A DNA stretch of 64,000 nucleotides from Polaromonas sp. (GCA_038902815.1 JBCKNF010000003.1:26809-90808), one strand, 5' to 3'; positions 35,950 to 47,401 are shown, counted from the stretch's first letter. The notes: generated by a model from the letters alone, not told the origin. Numbers and translations are program-made.

Positions 35950-36066
35950 TCAAGCCCATGTAGAGCAGGGGCAGGATCGTAGGCAGTCGCCCACGGTGTA
36001 GCCCGTGATGCCCATGTCTTCCAGATCGGTGAGCAGCGACGATTCGAGCACCGGTTCAAAGCTCAT
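35950..36066 (-). pseudogene. P-II/SbtB-like remnant (38 aa)
   Basis: MSFEPVLESSLLTDLEDMGITGYTVGDC...; ATGA overlap with the upstream SulP stop; too short for the ORF track. Confidence 0.55.
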
Positions 36067-38372
36067 CGTGTTATTCCGTCTTTTGGTTCATCTGGCGGAA
36101 GAAAAATGCCGGGTCGCGCAAGCGCCTCGGCAAAGGAGAGCAGCGACTCTATGGCCTTGGGTGACTCAAGGTCGTGCCCGGGGTAGAAGGCGAGCAGGAC
36201 GTTGTCGCGAATCTCGACATACAAGCCCGGATGTTCGATGAGCCTGCGCTCCCTCCCGGAGTCAACCCAGGCCAGCCCCTGCGCCACATCCTGCGCGTAG
36301 AGGCGGTAGTGCCGGGCGAGCGCCGGGCAGCTCGCCAGATCCACTTCCTGGTACTCGACTAGATAGCGCTCTAAATAAGACCCGGGCGTAAGCGCGAGAT
36401 TGGGCCACTGCACGGAGCCTTCCTCCGGGCGACTCAGCATAACAAGTGTGTGGCGGTGCTCGGCGTAGTAGTCCGGGGCGGCGGTATGGCTGTAATCGAA
36501 CAGCCTGACCTGGCAGCCGCGATAGACGCCGCTCATCGCGTTGCTCTCCTGACGGTTGGTCCCGCGGCGCAGGTACACGAGGTTGTGGCTGTTGAGCGTC
36601 GCCACCGTGGACGGCGCAAACGCGAAGCCGTGACGCCGCGCCACCTCGGCCATCTGTAGTTCGCGCGTCGACAACTGCGCCTTCTCCTTGACCAGCTTCG
36701 CGTCATGCATGCGCGCCGACAACGCGTGGCGGGTGAACTGGTAGAAGTTGTCGAGGCCCTGGATCTCGAACGGACGCCTCGCGTGCAGGCACTCCTCGCG
36801 GAACTGGTGCAGGTATTCCATTGCGGTGTGATCAATGATCCGCCCGGATTCGGTGACGACGAGCGTGATGGCCGCACCCTGCGGGATCGCTTGCAGCAGC
36901 TTGTCGAGCGGCAGCAGATTGAAGCACACGACCGAGCCGAGCGAGATGCGGTAGTGCGGACCTTCCGTGTTCTCCTCCACCTTGACCTTGATCACCGGGT
37001 TGCGGAACAAGCCGCCGAAGTTGTCCCACAGCAGCTTGACCGACTGGGCGAAGGTGAGCCGCCCGGTCAGCACCATGCGCAGCGACGGCGTGAGCAGGTA
37101 CACGAGTAGCGCGATCTCCGCCGCAACGCCGAGCAGGATGCCAACCAGCAGGTCGGTAGCGAGAATCGCCGCGATCGTCACCACGAAGATCAGCATCTGG
37201 TCGCGCCCGATGATGTAGGTCTTGCGGAATACGCTGAACTCGCACAGCCGCCAGCCAACATAGACCAGAATCGAGCCGACGGCCGCCAGCGGGATGCGCG
37301 CGATGATATCCTTGGCCAGGAACAGAAACACGATCAGGAACGTCGCGCTATAGAAGTTGGCCCACAGCGTGCGGCCGCCGGCATCAATGTTGGCGCGGCT
37401 CGGGACGGCGTTGGGAATGATGGTGAGCCCACCGAAGACGGAGGATAGCGTGTTCGACACGCCCATGGCGCGCAGTGTTACGTTCGGATCCGACTTGCGC
37501 TGGTAGGGATCTATTTTGTCCACTGCGGCGATGCTCGCCAGCGACTCAATGCCGTCAATCAGGGTGAGCATGACCACTACCAGAAATATACTCCACCAAA
37601 TCTCGGACCGGTTCCAGGCCGCAGCAAACGCCGGCAACGTGATGCCGCCCTCGATGATGTTGTGCGGCATGGCGATCAGGTGCTGCGGCTCGAGCTGTAA
37701 CAGATAGCCGAGCCCGATGCCGATGCCCGCCACGGTCAGCGGCGGCGGGATGCGCCGCATCCAGGCATGGCGTGTACGGTTGAGATAGAACAGCAGGAAC
37801 AGACAGATGCCGCCAATCACCGCGATCGCCGCATCGGTCTGGAGCAGGACTGCGGGCAGGTTGGCCATGGTCACCAACATGCTCTTCGCGGGCGGCGCAA
37901 GCACACCGAGCAGCGCTGGGAACTGCTTGACGATGATCATGATGCCGATCGCCGCCAGCATTGCCTCGACCACCGTCACCGGCAGGAACAACGCGAAGCG
38001 CCCGGCCTTGAATAGGCTGAGCACGATCTGCACCAGACCGGTGAGGAAAATTGCCACCAGCAGCAGCGGATAGCCCACCGCGAGATCGCCGTCGCCGAGC
38101 AAGATAATGCTGGCGAGCACTGCCGGGGCGAGGCCCGCCGCCGGCCCGCTAATGCTGACGTAGGCGCCGCCTAGGAACGGAAAGATAAGACCAGCGATGA
38201 TCGCCGAGATCAACCCCGCGACCGGCGGCGCGCCAGAGGCGATGGCAATGCCCAGCGAGAATGGCAGATACACCAGCGCCACCTGCAGACCCGCCACCAG
38301 GTCATAGCGCCAGTGCTTTAAGCCTTTGATGCCGTTTTGCGGTTTTTCATGCGGCAATGGTTGCCGTATCAT
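36063..38372 (-). CDS. SulP family transporter (candidate bicarbonate transporter) with extra C-terminal domain
   Basis: LPFSLGIAIASGAPP, SGPAAGL, SRANIDAGGRT, IIDHT; lies in the carboxysome operon. Confidence 0.85.
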   Translation of the reverse strand: MIRQPLPHEKPQNGIKGLKHWRYDLVAGLQVALVYLPFSLGIAIASGAPPVAGLISAIIAGLIFPFLGGAYVSISGPAAGLAPAVLASIILLGDGDLAVGYPLLLVAIFLTGLVQIVLSLFKAGRFALFLPVTVVEAMLAAIGIMIIVKQFPALLGVLAPPAKSMLVTMANLPAVLLQTDAAIAVIGGICLFLLFYLNRTRHAWMRRIPPPLTVAGIGIGLGYLLQLEPQHLIAMPHNIIEGGITLPAFAAAWNRSEIWWSIFLVVVMLTLIDGIESLASIAAVDKIDPYQRKSDPNVTLRAMGVSNTLSSVFGGLTIIPNAVPSRANIDAGGRTLWANFYSATFLIVFLFLAKDIIARIPLAAVGSILVYVGWRLCEFSVFRKTYIIGRDQMLIFVVTIAAILATDLLVGILLGVAAEIALLVYLLTPSLRMVLTGRLTFAQSVKLLWDNFGGLFRNPVIKVKVEENTEGPHYRISLGSVVCFNLLPLDKLLQAIPQGAAITLVVTESGRIIDHTAMEYLHQFREECLHARRPFEIQGLDNFYQFTRHALSARMHDAKLVKEKAQLSTRELQMAEVARRHGFAFAPSTVATLNSHNLVYLRRGTNRQESNAMSGVYRGCQVRLFDYSHTAAPDYYAEHRHTLVMLSRPEEGSVQWPNLALTPGSYLERYLVEYQEVDLASCPALARHYRLYAQDVAQGLAWVDSGRERRLIEHPGLYVEIRDNVLLAFYPGHDLESPKAIESLLSFAEALARPGIFLPPDEPKDGITR

Positions 38373-38391
38373 TTTTTTGAACCCGCCCCGT

Positions 38392-38628
38392 CTAATCAGG
38401 CCAAACCGGAAGCGGGTGTGAGCTGCCAGCAGATGGAACCGTCTTACGTGCCGGACTGGTCTCCACTGGCTTGCTAACCGGGTCAGATGCTTTTGCTGAT
38501 ATTGCCGCTGGCACAGTTCCGGGTAATGTTTGTAATTTCGCCGCCGCGGGCTGTATCGGCTTACCCTGTTGCGATACGACCTGGCGCACACCCTGCGCAA
38601 GTTTTGACCCGATCTTTTTCACCGACAT
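38392..38628 (-). CDS. mcdB: Alpha-carboxysome positioning protein McdB
   Basis: Basic N-terminus, low-complexity middle, C-terminal VWPD; overlaps the mcdA stop. Confidence 0.85.
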   Translation of the reverse strand: MSVKKIGSKLAQGVRQVVSQQGKPIQPAAAKLQTLPGTVPAAISAKASDPVSKPVETSPARKTVPSAGSSHPLPVWPD

Positions 38629-45427: not shown

Positions 45428-45478
45428 GCTATGTCTCGTTTACCCGTATCGGTGAAATAATCCCCTGCCTGCTGCTTT

Positions 45479-45898
45479 CTAGCTGTAGCGCTCCCCCTCG
45501 GGGTTATCAGTGGCGTAGGAAGCCACGGTGTAGCGGATGCTGCGGCCCCCCACCTCCTGCCGCACCAGCCGATAGCCCGGCTCGTAGGAAGGCCGGTTGA
45601 CGATAAACGACATCGTCATGCTTTCGGTGCCGCGCGTGGAATCAAAGGCGTTGACCTTGATGTAGTGCTGGGGAAAAGCCTTGCGGCAGGCGCTGACCTC
45701 GTACAGGACGGCGGCGGGATCCTTGACGTCAAACATCGGCATATCCCACATCTCCCAGTAGGTGTTGCGCGGGTGCGGATCGTCGGTGTATTCCACGCTC
45801 AGCGCCCAGCCTTTATTCAGGGCATATTGCATCTGCGCCTTGATCTGCTCGTCGCTCAGCTCGGGCAGAAATGAAAACATACCTTGTGTCACTTTCAT
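45479..45898 (-). CDS. cbbS: Rubisco small subunit, red type
   Basis: MKVTQGMFSFLP, DDPHPRNTYWEMW, C-terminal beta-hairpin extension. Confidence 0.96.
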   Translation of the reverse strand: MKVTQGMFSFLPELSDEQIKAQMQYALNKGWALSVEYTDDPHPRNTYWEMWDMPMFDVKDPAAVLYEVSACRKAFPQHYIKVNAFDSTRGTESMTMSFIVNRPSYEPGYRLVRQEVGGRSIRYTVASYATDNPEGERYS

Positions 45899-45931
45899 GT
45901 CAGTTTCTCCTTAGTTCTCAATGCGTGTTGA

Positions 45932-47401
45932 TTAACGGCTAACGCCGGGAGTGGCCACATAGTCGGGGCTGTCAGTGGATTCGTAGTTGAAGCTAACGTC
46001 CTTCCACAGTTCCAAGCCGATTTTCAGCGGGGTACACCACTTGGCGGCATCCGCCAGGATTTGCGGGCCTTCGTTCCAGATGTCGCGGCCTTCGTTGCGT
46101 GCCATGACCATGACTTCGAGCGCCACACGGTTGGCCTGTGCACCGGCCTGAATACCTTGTGGGTGGCCGATGGTGCCGCCGCCAAATTGCAATACCACAT
46201 CGTCGCCCAGATAATGCAGCAACTGGTGCATCTGACCGGCATGGATACCACCGGATGCCACCGGCATACACTTGTTGAGTGAAGCCCAGTCCTGCTCAAA
46301 GAACAGGCCTTTTTGCAAATTCACATCAGTATGCGTGTCGAGCAAGGTATCGTAGTAGCCGCGGATCATCATCGGATCGCCTTCCAGCTTGCCCACCACG
46401 GTGCCGGCATGGATGTGATCCACCCCCGCCATACGCATCCACTTGCAAATCACGCGGAAGCTCATGCCGTGATTTTTCTGACGTGAATAAGCCGAGTTAC
46501 CCGCGCGGTGCAAGTGCAGGATCATGTCGTTCTTACGCGACCAAATAGCCATCGACTGAATGGCGGTGTAGCCGACCACCAAGTCAATCATGATAATGAC
46601 TGAACCCAGTTCTTTTGCAAATTCTGCACGCAGGTACATTTCTTCCATGGTGCCGGCGGTGACGTTCAGGTAATGACCTTTAACTTCACCGGTCGCGGCG
46701 GAGGCCTTGTTCACCGCTTCCATGCAATACAGGAAACGGTCGCGCCAGTGCATGAACGACTGCGAGTTGATGTTCTCGTCGTCCTTCATGAAGTCCAGAC
46801 CGCCCTTGAGTCCTTCATACACCACGCGACCATAGTTTTTGCCAGACAGGCCGAGCTTGGGCTTGGTGGTGGCGCCCAGGAGCGGGCGGCCAAACTTGTC
46901 CAGACGCTCGCGCTCGACCACGACGCCGGTAGCCGGACCCTGGAAGGTCTTGAGGTAAGCGACCGGAATACGCATATCTTCCAGACGCAGCGCCTTGACC
47001 GCCTTCATGCCGAATACGTTGCCGATAATGGAAGCGGTCAGGTTGGCGATTGAATTTGGCTCGAACAGATCTATATCGTAGGCGATATAGGCAAAGAATT
47101 GGCCGGGGCTGCCGGGTACCGGGTCTACCCGGTATGCCTTGCCGCGGTACAGCGTCGCGGCGGTCAGGCGATCGGTCCATACCACGGTCCAGGTCGCGGT
47201 GGACGACTCCCCGGCCACGGCGGCAGCGGCTTCAATCGGATCCACGCCTGCTTGCGGGGTAATGCGGAACATCGCCAATACGTCGGTATCCAATATCTTG
47301 TGGTTCGGCTCCCAATAGCCCATCTTGGCGTAAGGAAGCACCCCCGCCTTGTAGCGCTCCTTGCCTTCCTTCAGTGTTACTTGTCCCGCTTCGTTCGCCA
47401 T
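45932..47401 (-). CDS. cbbL: Rubisco large subunit, red type (Form IC/ID-like)
   Basis: [46 protein letters not shown] at 47401 with GGAG RBS. Confidence 0.97.

Follow-up and report, generated by a model that had tools for sequence, protein, structure and literature searches.

The 64,000-nucleotide stretch of Polaromonas sp. DNA analysed here (GCA_038902815.1, JBCKNF010000003.1:26809-90808; hereafter the window) carries an alpha-carboxysome operon in which the Rubisco is of the red type and the gene for the red Rubisco activase, CbbX, is fused in frame to the gene for the scaffold protein CsoS2. Carboxysome cargo is by definition green in reviews up to 2026, Form IA in alpha- and Form IB in beta-carboxysomes (PMC9164163, PMC12918739). 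No earlier report of a red or Form IC carboxysome, or of a CbbX-CsoS2 fusion, was found in the literature, supplementary locus tables and closed journals lying outside the coverage; the main text of the bacterial microcompartment (BMC) catalogue PMC8217296 contains neither 'form IC' nor 'CbbX'. Judging from gene content and conservation, the operon would build a working carboxysome with red Rubisco as its cargo, with a probability of about 0.75. Roughly two thirds of this estimate goes to a reading in which a new scaffold repeat does most of the Rubisco binding, and the remaining third to one in which the fused CbbX hexamer is the tether.

The gene cbbL (45932..47401, minus strand; all positions are those of the window) encodes a red-type Form I large subunit of 489 amino acids with its catalytic motifs and, at the C-terminus, a red-type tail that ends in G-V-S-R. 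The 11 PDB chains that matched best were of red type (836-943 bits), whereas green Form IA/IB chains gave at most 619 bits. Chain 1svd, from H. neapolitanus (PMC10614612), gave 594 bits. In a 72-row tree, computed in a quick version and with the CbbL of the related locus L054 entered up to its stop, the window's protein fell inside the red clade (support 100). The nearest labelled neighbours were Nitrosomonas ureae, Nitrococcus and Methylomirabilis (support 98), not Cupriavidus or Sinorhizobium, in trees without Form ID sequences. A 19-row tree forcing CbbL among five green sequences was rejected (p-AU 0.0006, approximately unbiased test), which, together with the placement in the red clade, makes a green origin of CbbL improbable. 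The small subunit gene cbbS (45479..45898, minus) encodes 139 amino acids, of which residues 1-138 align with red small subunits; green chains end at about residue 100-110. Its C-terminal hairpin (betaE-betaF) is a red hallmark (PMC9833100), and both red-type features, this hairpin and the CbbL C-tail for CbbX, are present. The initial annotation had described a red-type CbbL and a CbbS with the red C-terminal extension; the PDB scores, the trees and the alignment bear out both, and CbbL did not group with Form IA.

Carboxysome-linked CbbL sequences form a clade of 16 rows (support 99) in the 72-row tree, with known gene context for five rows plus three identical database copies. Seven of their positions are near-private; of these, I36 and A82 (H. 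neapolitanus 24 and 70) lie in or beside the scaffold groove that in H. neapolitanus binds CsoS2 and CsoSCA (10.1101/708164, PMC10614612). The tail end ...SR is likewise near-private, in 15 of the 16. At positions where the H. neapolitanus Form IA enzyme contacts its scaffold, the window's CbbL has L for Y72, H for F346 and A for D69; linked red CbbL generally carry L or M at Y72 and H or T at F346, the aromatic contacts being lost. In CbbS, D52 and N132 occur in seven of seven carboxysome-linked sequences versus none of 20 free red ones. N132 aligns with N133 of 7yk5_I, and the pyrenoid linker PYCO1 contacts the diatom small subunit at N105, N133 and G137 (PMC10288592), a coincidence that is suggestive only. 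The near-private residues of both subunits are hints at a changed binding surface, not proof of one.

Behind cbbS lies the cbbX::csoS2 fusion open reading frame (ORF) of 833 codons (42926..45427, minus). Its CbbX domain (44546..45427) scored 511.8 bits with TIGR02880 (cut-off 459) over residues 15-294, in agreement with the CbbX domain of the initial annotation, and is followed in frame by CsoS2 middle and C-terminal repeats (PF12288, 226 bits). The Walker A, pore-loop, Walker B and sensor motifs are intact as in Cupriavidus CbbX. An AAA+ domain, Walker A/B, the pore-loop Tyr and a position directly behind red cbbLS are all present, and activase activity is predicted. In the AlphaFold2 model of the fusion, the AAA+ part is folded up to about residue 298, the predicted local distance difference test score (pLDDT) is below 50 over 299-833, and the mean pLDDT is 40.5.

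The scaffold half differs from ordinary CsoS2 exactly where cargo is bound. Form IA Rubisco is held by N-terminal RxxxxxRRxxxxxxGK repeats, which contact D26, D69, Y72, F346 and D360 of CbbL and D94 and Y96 of CbbS, and all 231 surveyed CsoS2 carry at least two such N-peptides (Oltrogge et al., 10.1101/708164). Ahead of the first middle repeat, this motif was found in none of 35 fusions versus 92 of 94 ordinary CsoS2; hence, the scaffold gave up the known means of binding Form IA. The place of the N-peptides is taken by a new region (44165..44395, minus) with FG(G/V)(M/P)P, W-x-K-R and [14 protein letters not shown], a candidate red-Rubisco-binding repeat. The motif (N/D)G(R/H)CEFG, in one to three copies, is present in 35/35 fusions and 0/94 ordinary CsoS2; each unit contains FG(G/V)(M/P)P and a basic segment as well, and G-C-F-G is invariant over 45 copies. 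There is one unit in the window and in the database fusion P0002, and two in most relatives. The 35 fusions comprise 23 clusters and 12 of 13 cluster members (one 124-amino-acid fragment was dropped), and three N-truncated red-type proteins were excluded from the 94. The middle repeats that follow (43610..44134, minus) align with the red-lineage type and form three complete VTG...C units, with more in relatives. The C-terminal region (42926..43609, minus), with the conserved C-peptide at its end, is of Acidithiobacillus type in trees and 80% identical in amino acids to the green operon L007. By these comparisons the CsoS2 scaffold was rebuilt, with the IA-binding repeats lost and a new repeat, an A9 run and a likely internal start gained; the new repeat (FG..P / [12 protein letters not shown] region) is likely a newly evolved red-Rubisco binder.

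A metagenome pattern scan for the new repeat gave six matches, none near a cbb or cso gene, and these were rejected as chance. An atlas search with the P0014 linker returned solely CsoS2 clusters at 0.76-0.77, below the 0.9 mark, and is a lead only. Red-native CsoSCA (L010, L011, L012, L054, L055) have in common an N-terminal NRYGL(P/T/M)R, similar to FGVPR of the scaffold; a shared Rubisco-binding motif is possible. An in-frame element, GSTNVAGGR(M/T)PGA, resembling a mobile palindromic repeat, occurs at variable sites in csoS2 and csoSCA of L008, L010, L011, L012 and L054.

Directly after the CbbX domain, all seven loci with DNA carry (G/A)CT GAA AAA AAA A. In the window the identical A9 run, a predicted slippage or frameshift site, lies at 44482..44490 (minus) in codons E313-K314-K315-T316. 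The DNA of database-only fusions (P0002-P0020 and others, P0254) stands outside this count. None of 20 free cbbX genes has an A run longer than seven, and the 1.79-Mb genome has only 10 runs of nine or more A/T. Lys is more often encoded by AAG than by AAA in these ORFs, and of 16 invariant Lys columns not one has AAA throughout the seven loci. A stop follows after 3-26 codons in the -1 frame (seven loci) and after 2-44 codons in the +1 frame (six loci); the window's -1 stop, at 44457-44459, gives a predicted free CbbX of about 323 amino acids. In T. thermophilus dnaX, slippage at nine A yields the short ATPase half the time, and that gene shares with the fusion the A9 run in an AAA+ gene, near stops in both shifted frames, and a short free ATPase beside a long tethering form (PMC1088944). 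The genes are unrelated, and slippage in the window is predicted from conservation only; by this analogy, the A9 run likely yields free CbbX. The only shorter relative found, P0254 (317 amino acids, two members), belongs to the fusion-clade CbbX, terminates a few residues past the A-run and resembles the predicted shifted product.

Downstream of the run, a Shine-Dalgarno (SD)-like ACAGGAC stands 6-9 nucleotides ahead of an in-frame ATG-CA(G/A)-AC in all seven loci (44393..44411, minus, in the window), and one database gene call, P0040, begins at this Met345. The site is a likely internal start for a 489-amino-acid scaffold without CbbX, and probably the old csoS2 start. The distance from A-run to ATG is 32, 37, 52, 54 or 60 codons, and the frame is open across it in 7/7 loci, which were recovered with csoS2 or repeat queries and not with the fusion. 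An open frame over a linker of variable length argues that the fused form is under selection too. One gene probably gives three products.

The arrangement recurs. When GTDB genomes were scanned with the csoS2 part of the fusion, seven loci came up. The red cbbL-cbbS-cbbX::csoS2 order is present in five of them (L008-L012; labelled as four Gammaproteobacteria and one Verrucomicrobiota); L007 and L013 are green operons of the ordinary kind. A sixth other carrier, G232 (L054), was found among 100 relatives of genome G043. The gene csoSCA comes next on the same contig in L010, L011, L012 and L054, and a contig edge in L008 and L009. Among the 120 listed of 1779 matches, at least 23 protein clusters, the window's included, combine AAA and CsoS2 domains; two are loci named above (P0011 = L012 and P0014 = L054, identical over the tree regions). 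NCBI, ENA and Logan are all represented among the sources of the fusions. Three independent studies yielded contigs, from related strains, with both the CbbX end and the linker; in the contig of X6 record 16, red-type middle repeats run into a tail of the window's type, and P0004, P0005 and P0016 have the same head-tail pairing as the window. The initial annotation had considered both red cbbL genes near csoS2 and csoSCA in other genomes and an artefact at the cbbX/csoS2 junction; the same order stands in six further genomes, and the join recurs in these, in at least 23 clusters and in contigs of three studies. Given this recurrence, the cbbX::csoS2 architecture is no assembly artefact.

The window's own join at 43609-43627 was not bridged by any listed contig piece, and relatives have extra repeats there; its short middle region may be peculiar to the strain or reflect collapsed repeats. 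Among the sequencing runs listed, none of them RNA, no piece spans the whole operon, and the best DNA runs share 0.20-0.22 of words, as relatives and not this strain. Neither the linker nor the repeat was found in 203 congeners or 400 genomes of the order, and the red carboxysome system is rare. None of 259 matching plasmid records covers 80% of the fusion. Carboxysome operons can be plasmid-borne, as in the green alpha-carboxysome operon L100 on a Thiodictyon plasmid (NZ_CP020371.1 78868-85312). In L009 (G042:C420) the red operon occupies a 4.7-kb contig within a metagenome-assembled genome (MAG) labelled Verrucomicrobiota, which may point to transfer or a binning error; the same genome has an unrelated BMC locus on C1. 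In L055 (G044:C100:15700-19974), a second csoSCA-csoS4AB-csoS1-csoS1-bfr-acRAF-mcdA run is ended by a contig edge; its CsoSCA groups with red-operon CsoSCA, as a second copy or through strain mixture. In the green operon L013, a divergent CbbS-like ORF (6627-6863) lies upstream of the carboxysomal cbbL.

The fused CbbX domains form one clade (28 rows, support 96, FastTree) within the free CbbX of the G043 lineage; thus, the red head has a single origin. In G226 and G235, free red cbbLSX stands back-to-back with a green cso operon, a state from which the fusion could arise. A single clade of fusion CsoS2 C-termini was rejected (p-AU 1e-26, 24 rows; long-branch warnings apply). The tails fall into a red-native group, an Acidithiobacillus type (window, P0004, P0005, P0016) and a G226 type (P0027, P0034, P0078), which means that the red head has been kept on at least three shell backbones. 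Head/tail breakpoints differ among fusion proteins.

In the window, 43609-47430 is 76-87% identical in DNA to L010/L054 (85-87% to L010/L011/L054 over 43609-43980), and 38558-43627 is 79-80% identical to the green operon L007. The best blastn match changes from L010/L054 to L007 at 43609..43627, a recombination junction inside csoS2 with the red head above and the green-operon-type tail below. In the congener G131, the soxB and cbbR-cbbY genes that also flank the window's operon (91-96% DNA identity) enclose cbbR and a free red cbbLSX, and DNA identity to this genome is 87-96% up to about 47,600 and then falls at the cbbL promoter. This suggests an in-place exchange of a free red operon for the module, with the host regulator retained. 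That regulator, cbbR (47554..48462, plus), is a host-type LysR gene (Pfam LysR) divergent from cbbL, with 92% amino acid identity to the same-slot regulator of G131. We infer one origin of the fusion, within an uncultured lineage of Gammaproteobacteria, and later spread of the red head via recombination in the csoS2 repeats. The initial annotation had proposed a hybrid in which cbbLSX was swapped in; a red Rubisco amid intact shell, carbonic anhydrase and positioning genes was indeed found, but no plain swap, the scaffold having been rebuilt and the head grafted by recombination within csoS2. Among other congeners, L118-L120 (G092, G074, G096) have green cbbLS behind the same cbbR (85-86% amino acid identity) and no cso genes. 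Among congeners, Rubisco modules of at least three kinds have occupied the position behind cbbR.

No green or Form II cbbL was found in the seven carriers (G000, G041-G045, G232), all incomplete MAGs; G000 has one cbbL, and the others have red Form I or distant Rubisco-like matches only. Green cbbL is present in five of 26 relatives without the fusion. Contig C9 of G232 seems to carry the rest of that genome's linked operon; behind mcdA on this contig comes a free red cbbLSX. SbtA-like genes, named for likeness to an annotated sodium-dependent bicarbonate permease in L101, adjoin the red operon in L010, L011 and L054. In the window, a SulP-family transporter gene (PF00916; 36063..38372, minus) is the candidate for bicarbonate uptake. 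Homologues with 67-80% amino acid identity adjoin red cbbL in L008, L022, L054 and L108; against the BicA family it scores below the cut-off. A cytosolic beta-carbonic anhydrase (PF00484) was not found in G000 at 69% completeness, and G131 has an ORF behind cbbX that, by its motif, is beta-carbonic anhydrase-like; neither was used as evidence.

The proposed system would work as follows. SulP in the window, or SbtA-like transporters in relatives, would raise cytosolic bicarbonate. As many as three products would come from the fusion gene: slippage at A9 would release free CbbX, an unbroken frame would give CbbX-scaffold, and initiation at Met345 the scaffold alone. The middle and C-terminal repeats would nucleate the CsoS1/CsoS4 shell, as in alpha-carboxysomes, and the new region would bind red L8S8 on the co-changed surface. 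Fused subunits within CbbX hexamers would bring activase into the lumen and add valency, CsoSCA would supply CO2, and McdAB would space the particles. In the window's Burkholderiales-like host, the red head would have replaced a free red cbbLSX at the same chromosomal slot. More broadly, it is rather probable that such operons represent a third cargo class, with a mobile red head converting any alpha-carboxysome operon it recombines into and the activase packaged by fusion.

Several observations weigh against a working red carboxysome of this design. With carriers that are incomplete MAGs (G000 is 69% complete), a Form IA gene may have escaped notice. A second, free red cbbLSX persists in G041 and G232, and the linked cbbL of G232 (L054:6829-8307, C22) has a single in-frame TAA, by decay or error. 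The window's scaffold has a single new repeat unit and three middle repeats, and its CsoSCA has an N-terminus of the green Acidithiobacillus type (PPYGLG), which may not bind the red enzyme. The linked sequences are kin and not independent, so their private residues may reflect descent alone; the CbbL of L009 falls outside the 16-row clade but has A82, V461, L465 and R489 in common with it (a tree with this protein constrained to the clade was not rejected, p = 0.069). Concerning the gene products, the frame of P0254 is broken at the A-run, either through homopolymer error or because the fusion may not be obligatory. RNA folding 3' of the A-run gave no hairpin shared among loci, so transcriptional slippage would fit better than a ribosomal shift. 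The neighbouring acRAF has been described as a Form IA chaperone (PMC7714395), and part of the tail may be carried along.

Within a red carboxysome, the roles of the two fusion halves may be divided differently: the fused CbbX hexamer could be the tether gripping the red CbbL C-tail, and the new repeat could bind shell, CsoSCA or other scaffold molecules. This is possible, though rather doubtful. CbbX does engage the red C-tail, and does so as an activase whose binding depends on RuBP (ribulose-1,5-bisphosphate) and ATP and is under allosteric control (PMC9833100), which speaks against a standing tether. The frame kept in 7/7 loci, the near-private ...SR tail end (15/16) and the single repeat of the window and P0002, too few for multivalency without an oligomer, favour the tether. 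Activase binding is transient, which counts against it, as do the conserved SD-like site with Met345, giving a scaffold without CbbX, and P0254 without an in-frame fusion. It is unlikely that the red Rubisco stays in the cytosol and that the shell genes are co-transcribed passengers after promoter capture, making empty shells, shells with carbonic anhydrase only, or none. Such a passenger shell has no evident benefit; the shell, carbonic anhydrase and scaffold genes are intact in all loci read, the conserved new repeat arose exactly at the former cargo-binding domain, and the red head was retained on three backbones, all of which oppose it. The G232 cbbL stop, the shortened scaffold of the window and the rare, patchy spread (0/203 congeners, 0/400 of the order) are in its favour. 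Atypical cso loci of doubtful function exist and, according to the review PMC9164163, packing of non-carboxysomal Rubisco has not been seen; on the other side, unpackaged carbonic anhydrase is expected to undo bicarbonate accumulation (PMC10614612).

That the shells load a Form IA Rubisco encoded elsewhere is very improbable. MAG incompleteness, the green-type CsoSCA and shell of the window, and the split cbbLS and csoS loci of Thiobacillaceae (PMC9164163) would allow it, but the N-peptides needed for Form IA are present in 0/35 fusions, and green cbbL in 0/7 carriers against 5/26 fusion-free relatives. An assembly or binning chimera is barely credible. The join at 43609-43627 lies in repeats, is unbridged among listed pieces, and relatives have extra repeats there; against this stand the same architecture in six other genomes and at least 23 clusters, the three-study contigs, X6 record 16, the pairing in P0004, P0005 and P0016, and the flanks 91-96% identical to the congener, so that repeat number is at most an assembly collapse. 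A functional carboxysome with red cargo remains the preferred reading.

Compared with known systems, the operon shares with alpha-carboxysomes of the H. neapolitanus and Acidithiobacillus type the order cbbL-cbbS-csoS2-csoSCA-csoS4AB-csoS1, bfr, acRAF, mcdAB, and the middle and C-terminal repeats of CsoS2; the green operon L007 is 74-89% identical to the window's tail. It differs in that the Rubisco is red and not Form IA, Y72 and F346 are lost, the new repeat stands for RxxxxxRRxxxxxxGK, and the scaffold is fused to CbbX. The predicted recoding site, which would free the activase, is on the N-terminal side of the scaffold, whereas the frameshift of H. neapolitanus CsoS2 is in the middle region (PMC12918739). 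The locus would work like an alpha-carboxysome yet lacks two defining features, Form IA and N-peptides, and may be regarded as a variant, not a member. The shell proteins score as CsoS1/CsoS4 and not as CcmL/CcmO, unlike a beta-carboxysome with Form IB and CcmM/CcmN/CcmK. Bacterial red cbbLSX operons (Form IC; Cupriavidus, Nitrosomonas, G131, G008) share red CbbL, hairpin CbbS, CbbX behind and a divergent cbbR; however, free red CbbX stops 3-18 residues past the last motif (19 of 20 measured) with no shell genes after it, and the window's frame continues into CsoS2.

The atypical cso loci termed 'JEEPs' also depart from the standard carboxysome gene set, but their four classes lack or split genes, all their CsoS2 keep at least one N-peptide, and the text mentions neither 'form IC' nor a fusion (PMC9164163). 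Alpha-cyanobacterial CbbX and proteobacterial CbbQO are carboxysome-associated activases too, but are separate proteins serving Form IA (PMC12918739). In the diatom pyrenoid, the disordered repeat protein PYCO1 condenses red Form ID Rubisco (PMC10288592). The likeness is a works-like analogy in which one CbbS position (N132/N133) coincides; the pyrenoid is eukaryotic and without a BMC shell, and no sequence kinship is claimed.

If the operon works, it offers a ready-made targeting sequence and a built-in activase for the red enzyme, usable in synthetic CO2-concentrating work. It would mean that nature retargeted the shell to a different Rubisco lineage and packaged the activase through gene fusion, and it would point to a route of cargo change in which the scaffold's N-terminal domain is swapped through recombination in repeats. 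Free and linked red enzymes are 85-89% identical, sometimes in one genome, and form a natural test of whether encapsulation drives Rubisco speed; carboxysomal enzymes are reported to be about five times faster (PMC11251275).

From cbbL to the first sulP, the genes form one co-directional minus-strand run with intergenic gaps of -10 to +51 nucleotides, and all members listed in the initial annotation are in place. Its names for csoSCA, csoS4A, csoS4B and the two csoS1 are supported by scores above NCBIfam cut-offs; those for acRAF and mcdB lack family-level support and are labels from position and likeness to neighbours in other cso operons. The carbonic anhydrase gene csoSCA (41257..42876, minus) scored 758 bits with TIGR02701, has three Pfam domains and is 83% identical in amino acids to L007; its Cys/His motifs are present and presumably form the zinc site. 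The vertex proteins csoS4A (41012..41260, TIGR02703) and csoS4B (40735..41001, TIGR02704) and the hexamer shell proteins csoS1 (40392..40688, NF053791) and csoS1 with a C-terminal extension (40004..40342, NF053791), all minus, exceeded the respective cut-offs. They are followed by a bacterioferritin-like gene of cso loci (39549..39992, minus, PF00210) and a pterin-dehydratase-like gene, likely acRAF (39274..39552, minus; weak PF01329 match, E=3e-4, below cut-off; 78% amino acid identity to the L007 counterpart). A ParA ATPase, likely McdA (38619..39254, minus), is above the NF041546 cut-off. The 78-amino-acid ORF behind it, likely McdB (38392..38628, minus), has no family match and is 51% identical to the gene behind mcdA in L007; the name is based in part on a C-terminal WPD motif. 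Neither csoS1D nor cbbQO was seen in the window's operon.

Beyond the first sulP lies a second SulP/STAS transporter gene (33864..35945, minus, TIGR00815 above cut-off). Between the two is a 38-amino-acid ORF (35950-36066, minus), whose start presumably resembles a P-II/SbtB-type protein and whose register is lost after the start; it is probably a remnant. Calvin-cycle genes (fbp, prk, tkt, pgk, fba) lie on one side of the operon and Sox genes on the other, which fits a sulfur-oxidizing autotroph as host. A second cbbR (32869-33855, plus) is divergent from a cbbY-fbp-prk-tkt-pgp-pgk-fba run (24867-32807, minus), with no Rubisco genes between. In G008 and G098, cbbLSX occupies the slot between this second cbbR and the cbbY-fba run, and G131 has the window's split layout. 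The Sox cluster (soxC, cytochrome, soxY, Z, A, X, B; 48489-55097, minus) adjoins the carbon-fixation genes, and a Cas6/Cmx6-like gene lies near the window end (63286-63900, minus).

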